Shown: positions 3,327-64,000 of the stretch, one piece after another
Layout of the letters: every line of letters begins with the position of its first letter
How positions within the stretch are numbered: the stretch's first letter is position 1
Assembly: GCF_016026235.1 (NCBI RefSeq)
Contig: NZ_CP065613.1
Strand: one strand, 5' to 3'
Length of the DNA: 64,000 bases
From: Escherichia coli
GTDB lineage: Bacteria; Pseudomonadota; Gammaproteobacteria; Enterobacterales; Enterobacteriaceae
The notes under the pieces: model-generated
Told to the model about the DNA's origin: nothing
The model's database searches: none
Seen by the model: only the letters and a program-made list of their open reading frames with translations
Translations under genes and position numbers: made by a program

Positions 3327-4895
3327 ATGTTAGATATAGTCGAACTGTCGCGCTTACAGTTTGCCTTGACCGCGATGTACCACTTCCTTTTTGTGCCACT
3401 GACGCTCGGTATGGCGTTCCTGCTGGCCATTATGGAAACGGTCTACGTCCTCTCCGGCAAACAGATTTATAAAGATATGACCAAGTTCTGGGGCAAGTTG
3501 TTTGGTATCAACTTCGCTCTGGGTGTGGCTACCGGTCTGACCATGGAGTTCCAGTTCGGGACTAACTGGTCTTACTATTCCCACTATGTAGGGGATATCT
3601 TCGGTGCGCCGCTGGCAATCGAAGGTCTGATGGCCTTCTTCCTCGAATCCACCTTTGTAGGTCTGTTCTTCTTCGGTTGGGATCGTCTGGGTAAAGTTCA
3701 GCATATGTGTGTCACCTGGCTGGTGGCGCTCGGTTCAAACCTGTCCGCACTGTGGATTCTGGTTGCGAACGGCTGGATGCAAAACCCAATCGCGTCCGAT
3801 TTCAACTTTGAAACTATGCGTATGGAGATGGTGAGCTTCTCCGAGCTGGTGCTTAACCCGGTTGCTCAGGTGAAATTCGTTCACACTGTAGCGTCTGGTT
3901 ATGTGACTGGCGCGATGTTCATCCTCGGTATCAGCGCATGGTATATGCTGAAAGGTCGTGACTTCGCCTTCGCTAAACGCTCCTTTGCTATCGCTGCCAG
4001 CTTCGGTATGGCTGCTGTTCTGTCTGTTATTGTTCTGGGTGATGAATCCGGCTACGAAATGGGCGACGTGCAGAAAACCAAACTGGCTGCTATTGAAGCC
4101 GAGTGGGAAACGCAACCTGCGCCTGCTGCCTTTACTCTGTTCGGCATTCCTGATCAGGAAGAGGAGACGAACAAATTTGCGATTCAGATCCCTTACGCAC
4201 TGGGCATCATTGCAACGCGTTCCGTGGATACCCCGGTTATCGGCCTGAAAGAGCTGATGGTGCAGCATGAAGAACGCATTCGTAACGGGATGAAGGCGTA
4301 CTCTCTGCTCGAACAACTGCGTTCTGGTTCTACCGACCAGGCGGTTCGTGACCAGTTCAATAGCATGAAGAAAGACCTCGGTTACGGTCTGCTGCTGAAA
4401 CGCTATACGCCAAACGTGGCTGATGCGACTGAAGCGCAGATTCAACAGGCAACCAAAGACTCCATCCCGCGTGTAGCGCCGCTGTACTTTGCGTTCCGTA
4501 TCATGGTGGCGTGTGGCTTCCTGCTTCTGGCAATCATCGCGCTCTCTTTCTGGAGTGTCATCCGCAACCGCATTGGCGAGAAAAAATGGCTTCTGCGCGC
4601 CGCGCTGTACGGTATTCCGCTGCCGTGGATTGCTGTAGAAGCGGGCTGGTTCGTGGCTGAATATGGCCGCCAACCGTGGGCTATCGGTGAAGTGCTGCCG
4701 ACAGCTGTGGCGAACTCGTCACTGACCGCAGGCGATCTCATCTTCTCAATGGTGCTGATTTGCGGCCTGTATACTCTGTTCCTGGTGGCAGAATTGTTCT
4801 TAATGTTCAAGTTTGCACGCCTCGGCCCAAGCAGCCTGAAAACCGGTCGCTATCACTTTGAGCAGTCTTCCACGACTACTCAGCCGGCACGCTAA
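3327..4895 (+). CDS. cydA: cytochrome bd-I ubiquinol oxidase subunit I
   Basis: 522-aa translation [29 protein letters not shown]... recognised as CydA; ORF-track start 3324 is one codon upstream of the likely start. Confidence 0.97.
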
Positions 4896-4910
4896 GACAG
4901 GAGTCGTCAA

Positions 4911-6050
4911 ATGATCGATTATGAAGTATTGCGTTTTATCTGGTGGCTGCTGGTTGGCGTTCTGCTGATTGGTTTTGCAGTCACTGACGGTTTCGACATG
5001 GGGGTGGGCATGCTCACCCGTTTCCTCGGTCGTAACGACACCGAGCGTCGAATTATGATTAACTCCATTGCACCACACTGGGACGGTAACCAGGTTTGGC
5101 TGATCACCGCGGGCGGCGCACTCTTTGCTGCCTGGCCGATGGTCTATGCCGCTGCGTTCTCCGGCTTCTATGTGGCGATGATCCTCGTGCTGGCGTCTTT
5201 GTTCTTCCGTCCGGTCGGTTTTGACTACCGCTCCAAGATTGAAGAAACCCGCTGGCGTAACATGTGGGACTGGGGCATCTTCATTGGTAGCTTCGTTCCG
5301 CCGCTGGTAATTGGTGTAGCGTTCGGTAACCTGTTGCAGGGCGTACCGTTCAACGTTGATGAATATCTGCGTCTGTACTACACCGGTAACTTCTTCCAGT
5401 TGCTCAACCCGTTCGGCCTGCTGGCAGGCGTGGTGAGCGTAGGGATGATCATTACTCAGGGCGCAACCTATCTGCAAATGCGTACCGTGGGCGAACTGCA
5501 CCTGCGTACCCGTGCAACGGCTCAGGTGGCTGCGCTGGTGACACTGGTCTGTTTCGCACTGGCTGGCGTATGGGTGATGTACGGTATCGATGGTTATGTC
5601 GTGAAATCGACAATGGACCATTACGCAGCCTCTAACCCACTGAATAAAGAAGTGGTTCGTGAAGCTGGCGCATGGCTGGTTAACTTCAACAACACGCCAA
5701 TTCTGTGGGCTATTCCGGCACTGGGTGTGGTTCTGCCGCTGCTGACCATCCTGACTGCACGTATGGATAAAGCCGCGTGGGCGTTTGTGTTCTCCTCCCT
5801 GACGCTGGCCTGCATCATCCTGACAGCCGGTATCGCAATGTTCCCGTTTGTGATGCCGTCCAGCACCATGATGAACGCAAGTCTGACAATGTGGGATGCA
5901 ACTTCCAGCCAGCTGACGCTTAACGTCATGACCTGGGTTGCGGTGGTTCTGGTACCGATCATTCTGCTCTACACCGCCTGGTGTTACTGGAAAATGTTCG
6001 GTCGTATCACCAAAGAAGATATTGAACGTAACACCCACTCTCTGTACTAA
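4911..6050 (+). CDS. cydB: cytochrome bd-I ubiquinol oxidase subunit II
   Basis: 379-aa translation MIDYEVLRFIWWLLVGVLLIGFAVTDGFDMGVGML... recognised as CydB. Confidence 0.97.
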   Translation: MIDYEVLRFIWWLLVGVLLIGFAVTDGFDMGVGMLTRFLGRNDTERRIMINSIAPHWDGNQVWLITAGGALFAAWPMVYAAAFSGFYVAMILVLASLFFRPVGFDYRSKIEETRWRNMWDWGIFIGSFVPPLVIGVAFGNLLQGVPFNVDEYLRLYYTGNFFQLLNPFGLLAGVVSVGMIITQGATYLQMRTVGELHLRTRATAQVAALVTLVCFALAGVWVMYGIDGYVVKSTMDHYAASNPLNKEVVREAGAWLVNFNNTPILWAIPALGVVLPLLTILTARMDKAAWAFVFSSLTLACIILTAGIAMFPFVMPSSTMMNASLTMWDATSSQLTLNVMTWVAVVLVPIILLYTAWCYWKMFGRITKEDIERNTHSLY

Positions 6051-15500: not shown

Positions 15501-16438
15501 TGGTGATGATGTGAATGGCCAGACACCCCTTCATTCAGGTGGCAGTCTGGCCCATGACAAGGTTGATATTCCATCTGAATGGTGGCGTGCTCAATCTGAT
15601 AGTGATCCATCAGGTAGTGTTGGATCTGATCCAACAAGGCATCGTGATCGTGTGGCGGGATCACCTGCACATGCAACGTCATCACCGGCTTCTCGCCTAC
15701 CATCCATACATGCACATGGTGCACATTGCGGACTTCCGGGATTTCCCGGCACATACGACGCTTCAGTTCAGCGATATCCAGCGATACCGGTGCACCCTCA
15801 AGTAATTCATTCACGCTATCTTTCAACAGTCGCCACGCGCTACGCAGAACCAGAAGCGACACCAGTATCGAGAGAATGGGGTCAGCAGGTGTCCAGCCGG
15901 TCCAGATAATAATCAACGCGGCAATAATAGCCCCAACCGAACCCAGCAGGTCCCCGAGCACATGCAGTGCCGCTGCGCGCACGTTGAGGTTTTTCTCTTC
16001 GCTGCCGTGATGAAGTAACCAGAAAGAAAGTATATTTGCCAGCAACCCAGCCACGGCAATTGCCATCATCATGCCGCCCTCGACCGGACGCGGCGTGCGG
16101 AAGCGTTCAATCGCCTCCCAGACAATCAAAATGGTAATTACCACGAGGGCGATGGCATTCACAAACGCCGCGAGCGTGGTCAGTCTTAGCCAACCGAAAG
16201 TGTGGCGAATGGTGGGAGGACGACGTGAAAATTGCACGGCGAGTAGGGCGAAAAGCAGGGCGGCAGTATCGGTCAACATATGACCCGCATCGGCCAGCAA
16301 AGCCAGAGAACCAGAAAGAAAACCACCAATGACTTCTACCAGCATAAACCCGGCAGTCACGCCGAAAGCATACAACAAGCGACGAGCATTATTATCTTCT
16401 GGCAGGTGTGAGGACGTGTGTGAGTGTGAGTGCGCCAT
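15497..16438 (-). CDS. zitB: zinc efflux transporter ZitB (cation diffusion facilitator)
   Basis: 313 aa; [11 protein letters not shown]... His-rich termini, CDF TM core. Confidence 0.93.
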
Positions 16439-22659: not shown

Positions 22660-23676
22660 TTTATCGGGATATCCCTGTGGATGGCGTGACTGCCAGTGCC
22701 AGGTGTCCTGCGCCATTTCATCGAGTGTGCGCGTTACGCGCCAGTTCAGTTCACGGTCGGCTTTGCTGGCGTCCGCCCAGTAGGCCGGAAGGTCGCCCTC
22801 GCGACGCGGTGCAAAATGATAGTTAACCGGTTTGCCGCAGGCTTTGCTGAAGGCATTAACCACGTCCAGCACGCTGCTGCCTACGCCAGCACCGAGGTTG
22901 TAGATGTGTACGCCTGGCTTGTTCGCCAGTTTTTCCATCGCCACGACGTGACCGTCCGCCAGATCCATTACGTGGATGTAATCGCGTACGCCAGTACCGT
23001 CTTCGGTCGGATAATCGTTACCAAAAATCGCCAGCGAGTCGCGACGGCCTACAGCAACCTGGGCGATGTATGGCATCAGGTTATTCGGAATGCCTTGCGG
23101 ATCTTCGCCCATATCGCCCGACGGATGCGCGCCAACCGGGTTGAAGTAGCGCAGCAGGGCAATGCTCCAGTCCGGCTGGGCTTTTTGCAGATCGGTGAGG
23201 ATCTGTTCCACCATCAGCTTGCTTTTGCCGTAAGGGCTTTGCGGTGTGCCGGTCGGGAAGCTTTCAACGTATGGAATTTTGGGCTGATCGCCATAAACGG
23301 TGGCGGAGGAGCTAAAAATAAAGTTTTTGACGTTAGCGGCGCGCATGGCGCTAATCAGGCGCAGAGTACCGTTGACATTGTTGTCGTAATATTCCAGCGG
23401 TTTTTGTACCGATTCGCCAACGGCTTTCAGCCCGGCGAAGTGGATCACGGTGTCGATAGCGTGATCGTGCAGGATCTCGGTCATCAACGCTTCGTTACGG
23501 ATATCGCCTTCAACAAACGTTGGATGTTTGCCGCCTAAACGCTCGATAACAGGCAGTACGCTGCGCTTACTGTTACAGAGGTTATCAAGAATGATGACAT
23601 CATGACCGTTTTGCAGTAATTGCACACAGGTATGACTTCCAATGTAACCGCTACCACCGGTGACCAGAACTCTCAT
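22660..23676 (-). CDS. galE: UDP-glucose 4-epimerase; its terminal codon reads AAA (Lys) instead of a stop, giving an in-frame GalE-KGTT-GalT read-through ORF
   Basis: [21 protein letters not shown]... to ...[13 protein letters not shown] (338 aa), then KGTT and the GalT Met in the same frame; ORF-track ORF 21604..23718 spans both. Confidence 0.9.
23642..23657. promoter_or_regulatory. gal internal operator OI (GalR/GalS site) inside galE
   Basis: atgtaaccgctaccac (coding strand GTGGTAGCGGTTACAT) about 20-35 nt into galE. Confidence 0.7.
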
Positions 23677-29234: not shown

Positions 29235-30053
29235 TTAAATCAGGTGGCTATAAATGAACTGGGCAATGCTGTCGGTGGTGTTATCACCAATCACAATATT
29301 GGCGCGCGCTTTTACCGCGTCATCGGCGTTGCCCATCGCCACGCCTGTACCAGCGGCTTCCAGCATACTGATATCATTAAAGTTATCGCCGAATGCCACG
29401 ACGTTTTCCATCGACCAACCTTGCGCCTCAACCCATTTCGTCAAACGTTTACCTTTGCTGTTGCCGCCGCGTGCAATATCAACCTGATCGTGCCAGGACC
29501 ATTCACACTCCAGTCCCAGTTCATGTTCGACATGCTTACCAAAATGCTGCAATTGCGGCAGGTCATCGTGCGTCAGGGCGAACTTCCATACGGCGTTAAC
29601 TTGTTGCGCCGTTTCAGCCAGAGAAGCGACTTGTGTGAAAGTCGGACGCTGTTCCGGCGGCAGGGTTTGCGCCCAGTTAGATGTGCGAATGACATGCCCG
29701 GTCGGGTGCTCATAGACCATTGCATCATCGACATACATCAGACCGTGAATGTGGTGTTCATTCAGCATCTCAATGAGTTGCAGGGCTTTAATAACGGGCA
29801 TTGGGTCCGCTTCCAGCACGGTTTTTGCATGATAATCATACAAATAGGTGCCATTACAGCAAATAGCAGGTGTATCCAGCGCCAGCGCCTGATAAAAAGG
29901 ATGAATAGCGACGTGATGGCGACCTGTGACGATGATTAATTGATAGCCTGCTTCGCGAGCGCGGGCCAGGGCTTCTATCGATGATGGAAGCAAGGTCTTT
30001 TTCGGGGTCAATAAGGTGCCGTCTAAGTCGAGAGCAATCACGCGTGTGGTCAT
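29235..30053 (-). CDS. ybhA: HAD-family sugar phosphatase YbhA (Cof-type)
   Basis: MTTRVIALDLDGTLL... DxD HAD motif; 272 aa; ORF-track N-terminal extension is not real. Confidence 0.9.
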   Translation of the reverse strand: MTTRVIALDLDGTLLTPKKTLLPSSIEALARAREAGYQLIIVTGRHHVAIHPFYQALALDTPAICCNGTYLYDYHAKTVLEADPMPVIKALQLIEMLNEHHIHGLMYVDDAMVYEHPTGHVIRTSNWAQTLPPEQRPTFTQVASLAETAQQVNAVWKFALTHDDLPQLQHFGKHVEHELGLECEWSWHDQVDIARGGNSKGKRLTKWVEAQGWSMENVVAFGDNFNDISMLEAAGTGVAMGNADDAVKARANIVIGDNTTDSIAQFIYSHLI

Positions 30054-30288
30054 GGCGTATTCCAGATTAAGGTTAAGAATTTTCGTCTGCGCGAATGGTA
30101 CACCGATACCACTATCGGACAAAATTCTGCGTTTTAATTCAGCATTCACCGCCAAAAGCGACTAATTTTAGCTGTTACAGTCAGTTGCTAAATGCAAAGG
30201 AGCATTCATGAAGCAAATGCCTCTTAGGAATTAATCCTTTATAATCAATTAATTACAAGTGGCGTTTCGAAATCATTCGAAATTAATT

Positions 30289-31335
30289 CTAAATGTCTTT
30301 CCATTCCCTCCCTCGTCCGTCACGGTATTTATCCGTCATGCTGGATGAACGATGTCCAAGGAGCGCCTGAGTGAAATCACTGCCTTTTTCTGCTGAGTGC
30401 AGGCGACCGGATAAACTTCGGATTTCATGAAATGGCGGTGGGTCACCTTCCCATTTCAATCCGGATGTGTCTCGGGCAATCCTGAACTGTGCTGCGATTG
30501 TCCTGGCTGTCTTCCCTCCGAGTAACTTTTCGTTTTTACCGTTTATTTTTTTCAAGTTATCCAGTACATCGGCAAGTGTTAAATTCAATCTGGAAATCGT
30601 GGTGGGGAGAGAAATGCGAATTTTTGCCCCTGTTTTTTGTTGTTCCACGTATAGCCTGCCATCTCTTATATCCTCCCATCTCATAGCCGCCAGATCTCCT
30701 TCGCGCTGTCCTGTTACCAGTGCAAGATCCATGCAAAGGCCGAACCATTCGTTCTGGACGTCTGCTATTTTCCTGATTAACAGATACTCGTCAATTAACA
30801 GTCGACTGCGCTTCACTTCAGTTCTGAATGGCTTGGTTGCAGAAGCTGGATCTTCTTCGGCAAGACCAGAAGCTATAGCTGTTTTAAAAATGTCTGATAA
30901 AAGCGCCCTGTACTGGTTAGCAATAGCAAATTTACTCCCAGCTGCTCTGATTTCAAGAAAGCTGTACACCTCCCTTATGCCTATATTTTTAACCGGAACA
31001 CCACCAAAGTATTCACTTATGATTTTCAACCTCTGGTTGTGTCTTTTCATGGTGTTTGTGCTTAATTGTCTACGCTCTATTTCATTTCTGAAATTTAATA
31101 TCAGCTCGCAGAATAATGTTACGCTATTACCTTTTATTCTATCCAGTAAGCTTATATGTTGCGTGGATAATAATTCCATATTTGCCGCAATAGCCTCATT
31201 AACTGCAATTCTTTTGTCTCTTCCGATTCCAAACTCCCTTCCTGAACGTGGGTCACGATAACTATAATATCCACCTCGATTGTAAAGATTGGGTGGTAGA
31301 TCACGTGTGTTTGAGTTTCTTCTTCGTCCGGTCAT
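30289..31335 (-). CDS. int: lambda-type tyrosine integrase
   Basis: MTGRRRNSNTRDLPPNLYNRGGYYSYRDPRSGREFGIGRDKRIAV... closely parallels lambda Int; C-terminal HxxR...Y catalytic region (LLGHRSSSMTDKYRD). Confidence 0.93.
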   Translation of the reverse strand: MTGRRRNSNTRDLPPNLYNRGGYYSYRDPRSGREFGIGRDKRIAVNEAIAANMELLSTQHISLLDRIKGNSVTLFCELILNFRNEIERRQLSTNTMKRHNQRLKIISEYFGGVPVKNIGIREVYSFLEIRAAGSKFAIANQYRALLSDIFKTAIASGLAEEDPASATKPFRTEVKRSRLLIDEYLLIRKIADVQNEWFGLCMDLALVTGQREGDLAAMRWEDIRDGRLYVEQQKTGAKIRISLPTTISRLNLTLADVLDNLKKINGKNEKLLGGKTARTIAAQFRIARDTSGLKWEGDPPPFHEIRSLSGRLHSAEKGSDFTQALLGHRSSSMTDKYRDGRGREWKDI

Positions 31336-31525
31336 TTCTGATTCTCTGCAAAAGCCCGCCAGTCGTTTGAGGTGTAATTTTTTTTGCTGACTCATGAAAT
31401 AAATATTCACGCCCATCCTTTATCGGTGGTGGAAAAATCTTACATTCTCGCACCCAGCGGCGAACCGTTTCTGGGCTTCGTGGACGTAACTGACGGGCGT
31501 TCCATTCTTTGAGTGTCAAATACAT
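31301..31525 (-). CDS. xis: excisionase
   Basis: MYLTLKEWNARQLRPRSPETVRRWVRECKIFPPPIKDGREYLFHESA... near-identical architecture to lambda Xis; overlaps int start. Confidence 0.92.
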   Translation of the reverse strand: MYLTLKEWNARQLRPRSPETVRRWVRECKIFPPPIKDGREYLFHESAKKITPQTTGGLLQRIRNDRTKKKLKHT

Positions 31526-31629
31526 GTCATATTCCTGTAATATGACCGCCAGTAAATATACAGAATACTGGCGGGCGTGGTTGATTTTTAATAATCAGCT
31601 ATGAAGTTCTAATTTTGATATAATGCAAC

Positions 31630-31824
31630 TCACGAGGACAGAAGTTTCTCGCAATTAAAATTTATCAGTTTTACTTTCTGCTCTCTGGAAACGCCTGCTT
31701 CTTTTTTCCCTGAGAGCATTTTTTCGCATTCTGATTTCGTTAGTTTAGATTTTGAATATCTTGTCCAGCTGGTAGGAGAACCACCTTCCTTTTCAATAGT
31801 GGCTGTAATTTTATACATGAACAC
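31630..31824 (-). CDS. hypothetical phage protein (64 aa)
   Basis: ORF in the leftward early operon between the ATPase gene and xis. Confidence 0.4.
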   Translation of the reverse strand: MFMYKITATIEKEGGSPTSWTRYSKSKLTKSECEKMLSGKKEAGVSREQKVKLINFNCEKLLSS

Positions 31825-31868
31825 CTACATTAATATTTTCAAAAACCGTGTTCAAAATGCACTTGGTT

Positions 31869-32966
31869 TTACACCGGAATATTCTCATCGTATCCTGCTT
31901 GTTGCGTTTCGTTTTGTGTTTGTGGATCCGGGAATGCATATTCAACGCCTTCCAGTTCAATCCATAGTGCATTACGACCAGCTTTGATTGTCGGCCAGTC
32001 CATACCTTTGATTCTTTCCCATGAGCGGGAGGTGAATGTTTTTTCCAGCAAATCAGCTTTTGCGCGTTTGGCGTCGTTACTGGTGCCCCCATGGTGCTTG
32101 TTGAGCAACTCGATAATTTCATCAAGTGCGATTTCTTTTGCACGCTTTTCTTTTAGCCATGTCGGTGTACCGTCGTTGGCAAATAATTCACTGTTATCCC
32201 GTGAGGTATCGATGCCGAGGTGTTCACCTCCCAGGTTAAGAAACTCGATATGAGGAAGAAAGTTTTTAAATGTTGGGTTTGAAAATACCTGTCCATCAAT
32301 ACGGGTGGAGCGATCTTTTAGTATTCTGGCGGTGCGCCACACCTGACCGGTTTCTATGTTCATTTGCTTCTCCATCTGGATCAGGATGGAGGGTTCATAA
32401 CCGGTTTCTGTTTCTGCTTTCATTTTTATACCGGTTTTTGCCAACTGGCGTTTGCCATCATCACCTTCGAAAAAGTCATACTCATATCCTGCACGCCCGC
32501 ACATAATAATGTGCGCCTGACTGTTAACAAATCGATCGGTAAAGCGTCGCCACTCCTGTTTGAGCCACGCCCAGTCTGAAAATTCCAGTCCTCGTTTACG
32601 GTTTCGGCGTCTGGCATACTCGTCGCATAATCCGGTCCAGAAGTGACTGATGGAGTCGATGATCATTACGGAACCGCTGCTTTCCGCTTCATTAATGGCT
32701 TCAAGCAGATCAACAAACGAGCGGGTTTTTGCCGTAAATAATTCGATATTTTCCGCATCAAAGCGGGGTTTAACCCAGTCAGAGCCTGTTTCTGTGTCCA
32801 GAAACATTACCGGGCGGTTACCAGCTTCAATTCCCCGTTGCCGCATAAGCATTACCAGACCAATAGCCAGTTCGCTTGCTGTGTAGGTTTTGCCGTCGCC
32901 AGCAAACCCCATAATTCCTGCTTTTAGATAGGCCTGTGTGTTTATTGCTCGTTGAAAAAGCGCCAT
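31869..32966 (-). CDS. AAA_24-type (Sak4/RecA-like) phage ATPase
   Basis: Walker A GFAGDGKTYTA and Walker B VMIIDSISHFW motifs; 365 aa; sits where recT/bet lies in Rac/lambda. Confidence 0.55.
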   Translation of the reverse strand: MALFQRAINTQAYLKAGIMGFAGDGKTYTASELAIGLVMLMRQRGIEAGNRPVMFLDTETGSDWVKPRFDAENIELFTAKTRSFVDLLEAINEAESSGSVMIIDSISHFWTGLCDEYARRRNRKRGLEFSDWAWLKQEWRRFTDRFVNSQAHIIMCGRAGYEYDFFEGDDGKRQLAKTGIKMKAETETGYEPSILIQMEKQMNIETGQVWRTARILKDRSTRIDGQVFSNPTFKNFLPHIEFLNLGGEHLGIDTSRDNSELFANDGTPTWLKEKRAKEIALDEIIELLNKHHGGTSNDAKRAKADLLEKTFTSRSWERIKGMDWPTIKAGRNALWIELEGVEYAFPDPQTQNETQQAGYDENIPV

Positions 32967-32971
32967 AGATT

Positions 32972-33271
32972 TTAGTCCTCCAAATCAATATCAACCTGGT
33001 GGTGGGCAATGGTTTCAGCCATGTACCGGATGTGTTCTGCCATGCGCTCCTGAAACTCAACATCATCATCAAATGCGTGGCTGATTGCCTGTTTATTGGC
33101 ACCGTGGCGTTGCAAATGGTCGATGCAGAGCGATTCAAACAGGTGCTGAGGCAGACCTTTTTCCAGGTCGTCCGCCAGTTCCGTTTCTTTTTCTTCACGA
33201 ACGATCTGCTGGTAGTGGCGAGCCCATGCCATTTCTTCAATACGATCAAAAATCGGGTAAGCGCTCATCAC
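32972..33271 (-). CDS. hypothetical acidic phage protein (99 aa)
   Basis: ORF between the RecE-like gene and the ATPase gene, same strand, tightly packed. Confidence 0.4.
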
Positions 33272-35204
33272 TGGTCACTCCAAAATTTTCAAGCTTGTTG
33301 GCAATCATCATTGCGATGTCAGGGATTGCAGGCGCATAGGCTATGCACGCAGGATTCGCACATAAACCGTAAACCGCCGCAATCAACACCTGTTTTTTCC
33401 AGTTGAGTTCATCTTCGCCAGTTTCATTATTGCTATCATTATGCTGATCGCTGCCAGCGTTCTCCGGTAACAAATCATCAGCTTTTTCCGTTTTCTTCGG
33501 CTCTTCTTCCTGTGCTTCATCTGGTTTTTTTTCGTCAAAAGTTTCCTGATAAGTTGCGTCTCCCATCACCGCGCCACAGTCAGGGCAGTTATCCTCGCCA
33601 GTCTGATTGCAGGGTGTTCCCTCCTCCGGTTCGCTGTTCTGGTGCTGTTTATCTTCAGTCTGTCGCACTTCATTTTCCGTTTTTTTGACTTCATTTGAGG
33701 AGATATGATGACCGGGAATCCATTTCGGATCATTCGGGTCGCTAATCCCTTCAACAAATTCTCCGCGAGAGGCAGCCAGTAATTTGTCTGCATCGACAGG
33801 ATTTTTGGGCGGAATGTTTTTCCGGGCTTCATGGAGTTCTGCCCGCAGTTCCTGATATTTCGCATCAACAGCATTTACCTGTGACTGAGCATCCAGCGGC
33901 TGCGTGTCCTGATGATGTTCAGTTGCATCCGGTTCCACTGTTTCAGCCGTTGCCTGTTCATCTGCCATTGCGCAAGATGGTTGCGGTTTTTCTTCATCAT
34001 CCTGTTTTCCTTCTTCTGTTACTCGCTGCGGCATCGGGGCAGAGGAGCGACCGCAGGCAATATCCACGATTTCCGGATCAGGGTTGGCATGATCGGTTTC
34101 AGTCAGTACTTTGTTCAGATATTCAGTGACGTGTGCGGGGATGACCTCGATCCCAATTGGTGCTTCTTTCACGGACGCAACCACGATGGCGCGGGAATAA
34201 TCCAGCCCGCCAGGCATGGTGATGAATTTGTCGCGGAAAACAGAAAAGGGTGGTTTATTTTCAGCGATAATTTCCTCAATGCGTTTAGCGTGTGCCGGAT
34301 GAAGGTTATAGATGTCCACGTCCATTGAACGGGCCAGTACGCCAGTGGCTACATCGCGCGTCAGTGACGTCAGATCGTGGACGAAACCTTCGCCGCGATC
34401 GGTGAGGTTCCCGCCGCCAGCATTAGCACCGGAAGTCGTGCGAGTGATGCGTGAAACACGATTCCCTTTTCGCCATTCTTTTGTCAGAAGACCGCGATCA
34501 ATGTGTTCGGTATCCAGCCAGGCTGAAATGAAATTCTTAAATTCATAGGGCTGATGTTTTTTCGTGATAGAGAAAACTGCCTTAATTGCATCAGTCAGGC
34601 GGAGCAGGGCGGCATTATCCAGAGTTGTCGGTTCTGCCATGCCGCGTATGGCCAACAGCAGATTCTGGACATAGCTGTTTTCCTGATCCATCTCAAGAGC
34701 AGTAATGTGTTTGCGTTGTTCACGGGTGGCATGATGCAGGTATTTCCGATCCCCGGCAGCATACGTAAAAATGTGCAGAAGACGCTGTGTGAACCGCAAA
34801 GTGGCTACAGAGACTTCGCAATCCTGGCAATCCTCGTGGGCGTCTGCCTGCGCGTTTTCTTCCTGGCCTCCCGCCAGTTCTTTGGTTTCTTGAGCATTAT
34901 CCTGGTGGTGAACGTCGTCTGGCGCTGCTCCCGGTTTTAGTTCCCATGTCATGGAGTCTTTGCTGAGTTGATAGCGTTCACTCCAGGTAAAATCGATCTC
35001 ACCTTCAGGGGGAAGGTCATTAACGACAGGAAAATTTGTGGCAACAGCTTTAAAATAGTTGCTCAGTTTTTTACCTGACTTAACGAGCAGATAGTCCAGA
35101 GTGGTGCTGGTCGATTCAAAATCGTCGCTTGCCCACAGGACGACGTCAGGTTCACCGGATGATTTTTTCGCTTTCCGTAACAGGAAGAGTGGTTTTGTGC
35201 TCAT
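33246..35204 (-). CDS. RecE (exonuclease VIII) N-terminal-region homolog; C-terminal nuclease domain apparently absent
   Basis: N-terminus [31 protein letters not shown]... and internal block [35 protein letters not shown]...[64 protein letters not shown] match my recollection of Rac RecE; 652 aa vs about 866 aa for RecE. Confidence 0.55.
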
Positions 35205-35332: not shown

Positions 35333-35578
35333 TCAGAGTTGCCAGAAATTCGGCTTTTTTTCTGCGGGCAGATTATTTCCGATGTAAACCAGGCACATTT
35401 TTGTGGCACCTTCAACAAGAGTTTTAAAGTTTCCTGATAGACCGTCGATATCAACCACAGTGAATGGGGTTTCTTTATTTTCTGTTTTAATTACGTAGCC
35501 AATATGCTTTCCTTCCAGGTAAACCTCGTGAACAATGTTATCAGTAGTTGCAACAGTGGCTTCATAATTGGTGTTCAT
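35333..35578 (-). CDS. hypothetical phage protein (81 aa)
   Basis: ORF with GGAG RBS before MNTNYEATVATT... Confidence 0.4.
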   Translation of the reverse strand: MNTNYEATVATTDNIVHEVYLEGKHIGYVIKTENKETPFTVVDIDGLSGNFKTLVEGATKMCLVYIGNNLPAEKKPNFWQL

Positions 35579-35652
35579 GTTTTTCTCCTTAATTAAGGTT
35601 GAGCGAATCCCTGCCATTGCTGGCATAAATTCAGTTTCGAATAGTCAGTTAA

Positions 35653-35934
35653 TTAAAGTTCGTGTGCCATCTGGTCTTTTTCGGCGCAGATTTCACTACA
35701 ATATTTGCGTTTCTTTTTCCTCATCATGGTTCCGTGCATGTAAATAAGTTCAGCAGTGTAAGCCTTATCAGGGCTTACTTGTCTGTCACACAGGCCATAA
35801 GCACAGGGAATTAAATCGGGATCACCTTTCTGCTGGAGGGTTTTTTTGATTATCCATAACAATTTTTTGATTCCGGTGTGTGTTATGGTCTGCTGAGGTG
35901 CAGAGGTAAAACAATAATCAAGCATAGGGTTCAT
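35653..35934 (-). CDS. hypothetical zinc-ribbon protein (93 aa)
   Basis: two Cys pairs (CAYGLC ... CSEIC). Confidence 0.4.
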   Translation of the reverse strand: MNPMLDYCFTSAPQQTITHTGIKKLLWIIKKTLQQKGDPDLIPCAYGLCDRQVSPDKAYTAELIYMHGTMMRKKKRKYCSEICAEKDQMAHEL

Positions 35935-44863: not shown

Positions 44864-44937
44864 CGTAAAAACTGCTTCAATTCTTGTACGCTTCGCAAAG
44901 CTGTACCGCGAGGCGAATAGCAGACATGGACATTTGA

Positions 44938-45052: not shown

Positions 45053-45129
45053 GGCCCTTTAGCTCAGTTGGTCAGAGCGAGCGACTCATAATCGCCAGGT
45101 CGCTGGTTCAAGTCCAGCAAGGGCCACCA
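45053..45129 (+). tRNA. tRNA-Ile2 (anticodon CAU, lysidine-type; close relative of E. coli ileX)
   Basis: GGCCCTTTAGCTCAGTTGGTCAGAGCGAGCGACTCATAATCGCCAGGTCGCTGGTTCAAGTCCAGCAAGGGCCACCA; cannot fully exclude Met by sequence alone. Confidence 0.8.
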
Positions 45130-45130
45130 A

Positions 45131-45207
45131 CCACCACTAGCTCATCCGGATAGAGCATCAACCTTCTAAGTTGACGGTGCGAGGTTCGAGTCCTCGGTGG
45201 TGGGCCA
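45131..45207 (+). tRNA. tRNA-Arg (anticodon UCU)
   Basis: CCACCACTAGCTCATCCGGATAGAGCATCAACCTTCTAAGTTGACGGTGCGAGGTTCGAGTCCTCGGTGGTGGGCCA; cloverleaf folds, C1-G72 pair. Confidence 0.75.
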
Positions 45208-45209
45208 GC

Positions 45210-45285
<76 letters not shown>

Positions 45286-45288
45286 TAT

Positions 45289-45363
<75 letters not shown>

Positions 45364-48782: not shown

Positions 48783-50136
48783 TTTCTGGACTATGCGGGC
48801 ACGTAACAAAGTGCTTTATGGTGGTCGGTCATCGTCAAAATCATGGGATGCCGCTGGCATTGCCATATTTCTGTCGAATAAATACACCCTGCGTTTTTGT
48901 TGTGCCCGTCAGATCCAGAATAAAATCGAAGAGTCGGTGTATACCCTGCTCAAAATTCAGATAGACAGGTTTGGTCTGCGGCACCGTTTCCGTATTCTGA
49001 ACAACAAAATCATAAACCGGGTTACTGGCTCGGAATTTGTTTTTTATGGATTATGGCGCAACATCGAAGAAATTAAGTCACTGGAGGGGATCGATGTGTT
49101 GTGGCTGGAAGAAGCCCACGCACTGACGGAATACCAGTGGAAAATTCTGGAGCCAACGATCCGTAAAGAGGGTTCGGAATGCTGGTTCATATTCAACCCC
49201 GGACTTGTTACTGATTTCGTCTGGCGCAACTTCGTTGTTGATCCGCCCGAAGGCACTCTCATCCGCAAAATTAACTATGACGAAAATCCGTTTCTGTCTG
49301 ACACCATGCTTAAGGTTATCGACGCGGCGCGACGCCGTGATCCGGATGGTTTTAAACATGTGTATGAGGGCGTTCCGGAGTCTGATGATGATGCGGCAAT
49401 CATCAAACTGTCTTGGATAGAAGCCGCAGTGGATGCGCACAAAACGTTAAATTTCGAACCCAGTGGAAGAAAGCGTATTGGCTTTGACGTGGCTGACAGT
49501 GGTACAGATAAGTGCGCTAACGTTTACCGTCACGGATCCGTTGTTTTCTGGGCCGACGAATGGAAGGCCAAAGAAGATGAATTACTGAAGAGCTGCCAGC
49601 GTACTTATCAGGCGGCGCTGGAGCGTGAAGCAGATATTGTTTACGACTCTATCGGTGTTGGTGCGTCTGCCGGTGCTAAATTCTCTGAAATTAACGCTGA
49701 CCGGAAGAGCGAGAACGCATACGCGCGACGTGTGAATTACCAGAGGTTTAACGCCGGTGCTGGTGTGCATGAGCCAGATGACGAGTACAACGGCATCCCC
49801 AACAAAGACTTTTTCGCAAATCTTAAGGCTCAGGCATGGTGGCTGGTGGCTGACCGTTTCAGAAATACGTTTAACGCCATTAACAACGGAGAACAGTATC
49901 CTGTGGATGAGCTGATCAGCATAGATTCTCGTTGTCCGTTGCTTGAAAAGCTGAAACTGGAACTGACAACACCTCATCGTGATTTCGACCGTAACGGACG
50001 TGTGATGGTCGAAAGTAAAAAAGCCCTCGCAAAACGCGAGATACCGTCACCAAACGTTGCTGATGCATTCATTATGGCCTTCGCGCCAATCGATACATCG
50101 CTGGATATCTGGGAACAGCTGGGGAGACAGGCCTGA
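48733..50136 (+). CDS. terminase large subunit (start uncertain; alternative ATG at about 48793)
   Basis: Walker A-like YGGRSSSKSWDAAG near N-terminus, Walker B VLWLEEAH, nuclease-like C-terminal region. Confidence 0.6.
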   Translation: MTSTLTSKPTLNPALRSFWTMRARNKVLYGGRSSSKSWDAAGIAIFLSNKYTLRFCCARQIQNKIEESVYTLLKIQIDRFGLRHRFRILNNKIINRVTGSEFVFYGLWRNIEEIKSLEGIDVLWLEEAHALTEYQWKILEPTIRKEGSECWFIFNPGLVTDFVWRNFVVDPPEGTLIRKINYDENPFLSDTMLKVIDAARRRDPDGFKHVYEGVPESDDDAAIIKLSWIEAAVDAHKTLNFEPSGRKRIGFDVADSGTDKCANVYRHGSVVFWADEWKAKEDELLKSCQRTYQAALEREADIVYDSIGVGASAGAKFSEINADRKSENAYARRVNYQRFNAGAGVHEPDDEYNGIPNKDFFANLKAQAWWLVADRFRNTFNAINNGEQYPVDELISIDSRCPLLEKLKLELTTPHRDFDRNGRVMVESKKALAKREIPSPNVADAFIMAFAPIDTSLDIWEQLGRQA

Positions 50137-62167: not shown

Positions 62168-63208
62168 ATGTCGAAAAACTGGATGCGTCACTTTGAATTA
62201 TTGCTTGTTGATGATAAGGGCGACGGGATAAAAATTTCTGAGCTTAAAGTCACTTTCAATATTCAGAAAATGCCTGCGACCATATTTAATGGATTTGTTG
62301 GAAATTTTAAGGTTTATAACCTGTCTCCTACCACTCAGAACCGGATTATGCAGAAGGAGTTTTCGCGTATACAGGTTATTGCCGGATACAAGGGGCAACC
62401 GGATGCAGCAGGTAATTATCCTGATGAAAACGTTGGTATGATATTCAATGGAGATATCCGTTTTACTGTCACTGGTAAAGATAATGCCACAGACAGTTGG
62501 ATCATGTTGCAGTGTATTGACAGCTGGGAAGGCCACCTGAACGCAAGTGTGAAAACCACAGTGGCTGCTGGCTGGAAGTACAGCGATCTTTTCAGTCTGG
62601 GTATGAAATCATTCGAACCATATGGCATCGAATCCGGTGCAGTTCCTGACATGCCTGAAACGGTATTTCCCCGAGGTCGCGTTGTTTATCAAAACACATC
62701 AAGGTTGATGAATCATATCGCAGGGCAGTGTAAAGCTAACTGGTGGTATGAAAATAATCTGGTAAATATTGTTCCTGAAGATAAATATATTGGTGTTGCT
62801 ACGGTGTTGAATGCTAACACCGGGCTTATCAGTATGCCACAGCAGACGATGGGAGCTGGCGTAAATGTCAGATGTCTGATTAATCCAAATATTAAGCTCG
62901 GTGGGCTTATTCGTCTGGATCAGGCATCTGTATACCGTGCCTCTTTGAGTAATGACCAGGTAGCGAAATCGCCAGCACGACTGGATGAGTCTGAAAGCGA
63001 CGGTAATCTCTACGTTAACGGTCTGCCAGGCATGTCACAGCCTGCCAGCATTAATACTGACGGTGATTACATTGTGGGCAGCATTGATTATACTGGCGAC
63101 ACCCGAGGGCAGGCGTGGTATATGGACCTGCTTTGCCTGGCTAAAGGGAGTAAAAGTTTACTCACTCCTGATACGATAGCGAAAATAAGTGGGGTACCAA
63201 ATGCTTAA
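62168..63208 (+). CDS. putative baseplate protein
   Basis: 346 aa. Confidence 0.3.
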   Translation: MSKNWMRHFELLLVDDKGDGIKISELKVTFNIQKMPATIFNGFVGNFKVYNLSPTTQNRIMQKEFSRIQVIAGYKGQPDAAGNYPDENVGMIFNGDIRFTVTGKDNATDSWIMLQCIDSWEGHLNASVKTTVAAGWKYSDLFSLGMKSFEPYGIESGAVPDMPETVFPRGRVVYQNTSRLMNHIAGQCKANWWYENNLVNIVPEDKYIGVATVLNANTGLISMPQQTMGAGVNVRCLINPNIKLGGLIRLDQASVYRASLSNDQVAKSPARLDESESDGNLYVNGLPGMSQPASINTDGDYIVGSIDYTGDTRGQAWYMDLLCLAKGSKSLLTPDTIAKISGVPNA

Positions 63209-63443
63209 ATGGATCTTATTACTGGTATATTTTGTGACTTTGTCTTCTGTGGCTGCGGTAACATGCACCACTTCAAATACAGGAACAACTTACTGTACTG
63301 GTACAGACAGTAGTGGTTCTACAGTTAAAACAGAATCTTATACAACCAATACAGGTACTACGTATACCACAGGAACGATTAATGGGAGTGCAGTACATCG
63401 TGAATGCCAGGCGACCAATACTGGCACAACGTACTGTAATTAA
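63189..63443 (+). CDS. small secreted Thr/Gly-rich repeat protein
   Basis: signal peptide MLKWILLLVYFVTLSSVAAV then three TNTGTTY(C/T) repeats with spaced Cys. Confidence 0.4.
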   Translation: MGYQMLKWILLLVYFVTLSSVAAVTCTTSNTGTTYCTGTDSSGSTVKTESYTTNTGTTYTTGTINGSAVHRECQATNTGTTYCN

Positions 63444-63928: not shown

Positions 63929-64000
63929 ATGCCAGTTTCTTTAAGCGCTCAACTTGGTAGCAAAGAACAGGCCGATGTAAGACTTGCTGGCTCTGTCATG
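63929..64000 (+). CDS. 5' end of a further prophage gene (truncated by window end)
   Basis: GGAGG RBS then ATG; MPVSLSAQLGSKEQADVRLAGSVM... continues past window. Confidence 0.35.
   Translation, partial: MPVSLSAQLGSKEQADVRLAGSVM

Follow-up and report, generated by a model that had tools for sequence, protein, structure and literature searches.

The window analysed here, a stretch of 64,000 nucleotides of Escherichia coli DNA, passes from host genes into a prophage at the very point where pgl, the gene for 6-phosphogluconolactonase, should begin. This raises the question of what kind of junction has formed and what becomes of pgl in the lysogen. Our answer is that 30156-30288 is very probably the left attachment site (attL) of a temperate phage of the lambda type that uses the translation start of pgl as its bacterial attachment site (attB). 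The host stretch of the window carries a tRNA Lys/Val cluster, the gal operon, modE, modF, modABC and ybhA before the prophage is reached; toward the junction, modABC and ybhA are followed by the ybhA-pgl intergenic region and then by ATGAAGCAAA of pgl. The features that define the junction are the following.

29235-30053, minus strand: ybhA (HAD phosphatase), final intact gene on the host side of the junction; open reading frame, annotated as a 272-aa ybhA in matching loci
30054-30207, no strand: native ybhA-pgl intergenic region, kept whole at attL together with any native pgl promoter; identical to uninterrupted genomes
30205-30217, plus strand: common core TTCATGAAGCAAA (13 bp), spanning the ATG of pgl (30208-30210); shared without change by attL, attR and attB, with one copy in the window
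30208-30234, plus strand: orphan 8-codon open reading frame MKQMPLRN*, a by-product of the junction, in which the native pgl promoter, Shine-Dalgarno sequence and ATG are fused to phage DNA
30218-64000, no strand: prophage body, running past the end of the window; Rac-like early genes, lysis cassette, tRNA cluster and myovirus-type head/tail module, no IS

The position of the junction was determined by searching an 801-nt query that spans it against 5,426 complete E. coli genomes. Matches were obtained in 5,391 of these, 5,390 of them uninterrupted, and among the matches listed those from uninterrupted genomes, annotated with ybhA and pgl, all stop at query base 318, which is window base 30217. 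A single record (FDAARGOS_943) continues through the junction. The window reads ggagcattcATGAAGCAAA at 30200-30217, and the uninterrupted reference locus reads ...ggagcattcATGAAGCAAAcagtttatatcgcc and runs on as ...ATGAAGCAAAcagtttatatcgcc, both at the annotated start of pgl. Host identity ends at base 30217 and prophage DNA begins at 30218. The first-pass annotation, which had taken the last host bases for the start of pgl, is borne out, as these bases equal those of uninterrupted E. coli genomes up to 30217 and the sequence beyond them is native host DNA in none of the uninterrupted matches listed. The divergence into phage DNA that it described can be read directly from the window: ATG AAG CAA ATG CCT CTT AGG AAT TAA (30208-30234) closes after 8 codons with its stop at 30232-30234. 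One boundary needs correction: the ybhA coding sequence ends at 30053 and not at 30155, which makes 30054-30207 the host intergenic region. We conclude that the junction is correct to the base and is no chance resemblance to the start of pgl.

One further observation concerns the host stretch. At the galE stop position (22660-22662, minus strand), where K-12 presumably has TAA, the window reads AAA (GAT AAA GGA ACG ACC ATG), and galE and galT form a single in-frame open reading frame, a GalE-GalT fusion (galE start 23676, galT start 22650, end 21604). A 121-nt stretch across galE-galT has no 100% match in 5,390 E. coli genomes; the best match is 99.2% identical, and we assume that its lone mismatch is the stop-codon base. 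It is a variant of this strain alone, or else an error in sequencing.

On the phage side, the junction is followed by a recombination module.

30289-31335, minus strand: int, lambda-family tyrosine integrase; the open reading frame extends to 31416, with a lambda-like start MTGRRR at 31335
31301-31525, minus strand: xis (74 aa), overlapping the start of int; PHROG 629 excisionase (E=2e-21), with the Pfam Exc domain on orthologues in relatives

The integrase gene had been described as lambda-type and as starting about 80 bp beyond the junction. The first part stands, and the second has to be turned around: what lies 71 bp beyond the junction is the stop codon of a minus-strand gene, and int reads toward the junction as it does in a lambda prophage. 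The protein matches a PHROG integrase family, and an identical database protein carries Pfam domains PF09003, PF22022 and PF00589. Residues 3-347 align with lambda Int structures (5j0n, 1z1g; E=1e-83), and an N-terminal arm-binding domain is present (residues 3-58 against the lambda Int N-domain structure 1kjk, E=3.5e-20; PF09003). In the alignment with lambda Int all catalytic residues R-K-H-R-H-Y are kept, within the motifs TGQR, QKTG, FHEIRS, LGH and KYRD; we take these positions to be R212, K235, H308, R311, H333 and Y342 of lambda. The nearest integrases in a collection of 50,697 phage records are lambda-family proteins of the 434/HK97 type, at 45% identity. The excisionase gene is directly adjacent to int, and a comparison with NCBIfam yielded no informative family for either Int or Xis.

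A site-specific junction should have its counterpart at the other prophage end. The first-pass annotation placed this end outside the window, and mapping onto the 99.8%-identical prophage of FDAARGOS_943 agrees, putting attR about 9.5 kb past base 64000 and, with this attR position, the prophage length at about 43 kb. As the window's own attR is beyond its last base, attR was read in surrogates, namely FDAARGOS_943 and 13 Shigella loci. FDAARGOS_943 is a Shigella-like genome laden with ipaH, IS1 and IS600, and its prophage is piecewise 99.7-100% identical to that of the window (about 99.8% overall). Its right end consists of tail-fibre genes, ipaHb, a 43-codon DNA-invertase remnant, about 260 bp of phage DNA, ...tttgaggtgtgTTCATGAAGCAAAcagtttatatc..., and pgl, which is annotated as a complete 331-aa gene. 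The phage side of attR is marked by the 43-aa invertase remnant, for which the sequence collection has index entries in 1,101 blocks. In each of the 14 loci read, this remnant stands about 260 bp upstream of pgl, and across these loci the 300-bp phage arm at attR is almost invariant.

With these surrogates, the comparison of both junctions with an uninterrupted locus that the first-pass annotation had proposed could be run. At attR, phage DNA continues up to TTC and is followed by intact pgl. The 13-bp core is common to attB, attL and attR, standing at both prophage ends and once at the empty site, so that the suspected overlap of the attachment core with the first codons of pgl is real: the core spans the ATG and 7 bases after it. 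Of the 14 attR loci, 13 have a pgl of 331 codons without an internal stop, and the gene is broken in one S. dysenteriae genome. The right junction of the window itself would accordingly be expected to read ...GAGGTGTGTTCATGAAGCAAACAGTTTATATC... before an intact pgl.

The surrogates also differ among themselves. Among the lysogens, at least two groups of pgl alleles can be told apart, with 20-21 versus 34-37 nt differences from the E. coli reference, and the adjoining 300-bp phage arm differs by a single base across these groups; the split alleles beside a near-constant arm suggest either independent acquisitions by different Shigella lineages or a later transfer of the region. At six Shigella attR loci, head genes (Mu-F-like, DUF2213, cement protein) stand almost directly before the invertase remnant and pgl; deletions have taken out ipaH and the tail genes there, sometimes with IS1 at the deletion point, and the attR arm and pgl are retained. 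FDAARGOS_943 has a second lambdoid prophage about 10 kb beyond pgl, with int and xis adjoining ybhC (locus 4227-5493; record 2039226-2040492), so that two lambda-family attachment sites within about 10 kb are both occupied. Between these two prophages, ybhD and a ybhJ-like hydratase gene are broken by IS1 and IS5.

The window does not come from FDAARGOS_943 but from a close relative of it. Compared with the FDAARGOS_943 copy, the prophage in the window has none of the IS600, IS1 and IS2 insertions (window positions 31299, 35532-35695, 44906-44915, 49181-49186 and 63186-63427), one of which sits in int, and it keeps the 3.4 kb at 31300-34668 (xis, a Sak4-like ATPase gene and most of a recE-like gene) that the other copy has lost. 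The window may hold a still-functional version of a prophage mostly seen decayed. The prophage also carries a cluster of four tRNA genes at 45053-45363 with anticodons CAT, TCT (Arg), TGT (Thr) and TCC (Gly), the first being assigned to Met by ARAGORN and to Ile by the RefSeq annotation. The cluster is flanked by the Q-region genes and the lysis cassette; upstream of it come a QueH-like gene and the hokD toxin gene, the latter annotated in the near-identical copy.

Around the core, a set of putative recombination sites can be assigned by sequence pattern.

30197-30207, plus strand: AAGGAGCATTC, native pgl Shine-Dalgarno region and candidate host core-type Int half-site (B); inverted repeat with the phage half-site
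30208-30214, plus strand: ATGAAGC, putative 7-bp overlap for strand exchange; centre of the inverted repeat in all Int relatives
30215-30225, plus strand: AAATGCCTCTT, candidate phage core-type half-site (C'), reverse complement AAGAGGCATTT; inverted-repeat match
30243-30255, plus strand: AATCAATTAATTA, candidate IHF site in an H'-like position between core and arm-type sites; one of five matches to WATCAANNNNTTR in 64 kb
30264-30294, plus strand: three tandem arm-type candidates, GTTTCGAAAT (30264-30273), CATTCGAAAT (30274-30283) and AATTCTAAAT (30285-30294); the third shares bases with the int stop codon

In lambda, the core-type sites of Int are arranged around the overlap as C-O-C' and B-O-B'. 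From this arrangement and from the symmetry of the junction, we infer core-type sites and a 7-bp overlap at 30208-30214. More specifically, the host sequence AAGGAG(C/T)ATTC and its phage copy form an inverted repeat with 8-10 of 11 matches around ATGAA(G/A)C in 7 attL variants; 0.12% (0.0012) of the 11-mers of the window match at 8 or more of 11 positions, a background to be read with the relatedness of the variants, which are not independent trials. Inverted core-type sites flanking a 7-bp overlap are thus present at the level of sequence. The overlap lies within the 13-bp identity, and it reads ATGAAAC in a relative whose host pgl has AAA as its second codon. At attR, the C site, GAGGTGTGTTC, has only 7/11 matches to B and 4/11 to B'. 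The tandem arm-type candidates are 10-11 bp each. Exact CATTCGAAAT is present once in the window and once in a 31-kb surrogate locus (16149-16158), 132-141 bp upstream of the pgl ATG at attR, and the only IHF-consensus match of this surrogate locus is in the same, other arm next to it. Arm-type repeats are kept beside int in all relatives. The layout is as expected for lambda-type arm sites, with the motifs themselves being candidates.

The same site is used by other members of the integrase lineage. Int proteins 100% or 99% identical to that of the window occur in S. boydii, S. flexneri, S. dysenteriae and S. sonnei and always adjoin ybhA-modCBA. Relatives at 80% and 77% identity (E. coli), 78% (Citrobacter) and 70% (another enterobacterium) are likewise found at the pgl ATG, with phage arms that differ from those of the window; the Citrobacter one is on contig JBRFVF010000002.1 of assembly GCA_052950715.1. 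A relative at 62% identity, in Cronobacter sakazakii and its relatives, is located elsewhere, next to or in an alpha-amylase-family gene near pspD of the psp operon. It has the same CATTCGAAAT arm-type repeats beside int and a different core, so that the arm motif appears conserved while the core specificity differs. The pattern points to the pgl ATG site as a property of the integrase lineage.

Within E. coli, int DNA was detected by megablast and sensitive blastn in 1 of the 5,426 complete genomes (FDAARGOS_943): the lineage is essentially absent from non-Shigella E. coli and widespread in Shigella. A reconstructed 170-bp attP has no match among the 50,697 phage records, the exact pattern of core plus P' arm has none in IMG/VR or JGI metagenomes, and the Int relatives in IMG/VR are all prophage fragments ending near int, none of which yielded attP. 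The attP, whose core would read GAGGTGTGTTC-ATGAAGC-AAATGCCTCTT, is therefore a reconstruction. The common Shigella copies carry a 1-nt deletion in an A8 run (window 31385) that joins the first 49 codons of xis to int, and the resulting Xis'-Int fusion of 411 aa is indexed in 106 blocks. They also carry a C-to-T change at window position 30214, which makes the attL overlap ATGAAGT, unlike that at attR. Judged from these sequences, the frameshift and the overlap change should block excision; the window copy has neither.

What does integration at this position mean for pgl? In the mechanism we propose, Int would bind two inverted core-type sites, roughly AAGGAG(C/T)(A/G)TT(C/T), flanking the overlap ATGAAGC, within which strands would be exchanged, and the arm-type (CATTCGAAAT-like) and IHF sites of both arms would assemble the intasome. 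The left core site on the host side would include the pgl Shine-Dalgarno sequence. At attL, the native pgl promoter, Shine-Dalgarno sequence and ATG are then joined to phage DNA, and transcription from there would run antisense into int. At attR, pgl would retain all its codons and have its Shine-Dalgarno sequence swapped for the phage left core site. This site places an SD-like GAGG before the pgl ATG at a distance that is essentially native, presumably because it obeys the same Int recognition rule, so that the replacement ribosome-binding site of pgl in the lysogen would be the C site of the integrase. The claim that pgl in the lysogen depends on the other prophage end thus holds in the surrogate loci: the coding sequence is fully restored there, and the Shine-Dalgarno sequence and the promoter region are phage DNA.

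Transcription of pgl at attR would have to be phage-derived, either from a promoter in the P arm or by read-through. A promoter scan of the phage arm upstream of pgl gave 6 sites versus 4.8 +/- 2.3 in shuffled sequence; candidates on the pgl strand lie about 155 and 475 bp upstream of the ATG, at a frequency that is at chance level. The same scan finds no consensus sigma-70 site in the native intergenic region (30054-30207) and hence has little power here. At attL, no terminator-like site was found between the native pgl promoter and int; a 5-bp hairpin flagged by the scan beyond the core as a possible counterpart of the lambda tI/sib terminator was rejected, its folding energy being no better than that of shuffles (z = -0.22). 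Any effect of the native pgl promoter on int is speculation.

Could the junction have arisen without site-specific recombination, by a deletion or an IS-mediated rearrangement in which the 10-base match to pgl is incidental? IS elements and rearrangements abound in the related genomes. However, the junction itself is free of IS elements, both ends carry the same 13 bp with pgl resuming precisely at attR, int and xis are in their canonical position, and in different hosts five divergent integrase relatives have their junction with host DNA at this very base. These findings effectively refute a junction of illegitimate or IS-mediated origin. A reading that accepts site-specific integration and differs in its outcome is that the insertion simply silences pgl: the intact coding sequence would be cut from its promoter, the lysogen would be a knock-down, and the SD-like phage sequence would be irrelevant. 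The scan result agrees with this, as promoter signals in the 300-bp phage arm before pgl do not rise above chance, and so does the broken pgl of one S. dysenteriae lysogen. Besides, pgl is dispensable, as its lactone substrate hydrolyses spontaneously and E. coli B/BL21 lives without the gene. Against silencing, the native intergenic region lacks a consensus promoter hit too, candidate promoter sites are present upstream of the ATG at attR, and the 331-codon frame is intact in 13 of 14 lysogen loci, in IS-laden genomes where the neighbours ybhD and ybhJ are disrupted. Such survival of pgl amid IS-ridden genomes argues for continued use, although it is no proof. We regard silencing as possible but on the whole doubtful.

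An insertion that parts a gene from its promoter at the 5' end could also act as a regulatory switch ('active lysogeny'), with reversible excision turning pgl off and on; the window copy has intact int, xis and core, and there is a documented analogue in SpyCIM1, which inserts at the 5' end of mutL (PMC3430984). Yet the element is a full-size phage of about 43 kb with lysis and virion genes and no small island, in most Shigella copies a frameshift in xis and a mutation in the attL overlap leave no means of switching while pgl is still intact, and neither attP nor an episomal form was found in the 50,697 phage records, IMG/VR or JGI metagenomes. A switch of this kind seems to us very improbable. 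We retain the reading in which the locus is the attL of a lambda-type phage that integrates at the pgl start and restores the coding sequence at attR.

Phages that integrate in genes and restore them are already known, and the module of this prophage would, judged by its sequence, work like that of lambda, with differences in core, arm motif and target. The two share the three-domain alignment of Int and its catalytic residues, and they also share the layout, in which xis overlaps int, int is directed toward attL and stops some 70-80 bp short of the core, candidate arm-type repeats fill part of the stretch from core to int, IHF-like motifs occur in both arms, and putative inverted core sites surround a 7-bp spacer. 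The attB of lambda is intergenic, between gal and bio. In the prophage studied here the core and the arm motif (CATTCGAAAT) are different, and the target is the pgl start codon instead of the intergenic attB about 10 kb away near ybhC. Phage 21 and e14 integrate in icd and restore the 3' end of the gene, leaving its expression signals untouched. They likewise insert within a coding gene and leave a complete open reading frame in the lysogen by way of a phage copy of the gene end; in contrast, the pgl phage restores a 5' end, with 10 coding bases duplicated and the promoter and Shine-Dalgarno sequence replaced.

Active-lysogeny switches are known from SpyCIM1 at mutL and phi10403S at comK. SpyCIM1 inserts at the 5' end of mutL in Streptococcus pyogenes and separates the gene from its promoter; in one strain, mutL expression is rescued by a promoter inside the element, and SpyCI, a small phage-like island, leaves and re-enters the chromosome according to growth phase (PMC3430984, PMC4689407). 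The pgl prophage shares the site-specific insertion at a 5' end, but nothing in its sequence points to cycling, and most of its Shigella copies are locked in. [quoted passage not shown] That case involves another phage group, integrase and target gene, and pgl is not mentioned in the report (PMC11893012).

Among the ipaH islands of Shigella, the prophage as such must already be known. In the FDAARGOS_943 copy and in several Shigella loci, a gene for an ipaH E3-ligase effector is found just before attR and pgl, with ipaHb at the right end of this near-identical copy; the corresponding end of the window prophage is beyond base 64000. Chromosomal prophage islands of Shigella that bear ipaH have reportedly been described by Jin et al. 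in 2002 and Ashida et al. in 2007. In the searchable literature on pgl, ybhE, ybhA and ipaH with prophage, the genome papers on Shigella ipaH islands being outside its coverage, no description of the pgl start codon as an attachment site was found. The feature most worth attention is, in our view of the sequence, the apparent coincidence of the integrase core site with the Shine-Dalgarno sequence and start codon of pgl.

Our understanding of phage integration is unchanged by this locus, which is a tidy but ordinary example. What it provides are exact prophage boundaries for annotation and a defined attachment site for a lambda-family integrase lineage that has no match among the isolated phages searched. 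By placing the core site of its integrase on the ribosome-binding site of a gene, the phage would let that gene keep translation signals in the lysogen and lose its promoter, and any expression of pgl in Shigella would come from phage-derived DNA. A broader proposal would have the swapped Shine-Dalgarno sequence place a pentose-phosphate gene under phage transcription, the native promoter hold the prophage in place by running antisense into int, and pgl in Shigella become permanently rewired. We consider this proposal unlikely as a whole. If true, the regulation of pgl would have been rewired by a phage throughout Shigella, where the ipaH prophage is nearly universal and locked in.
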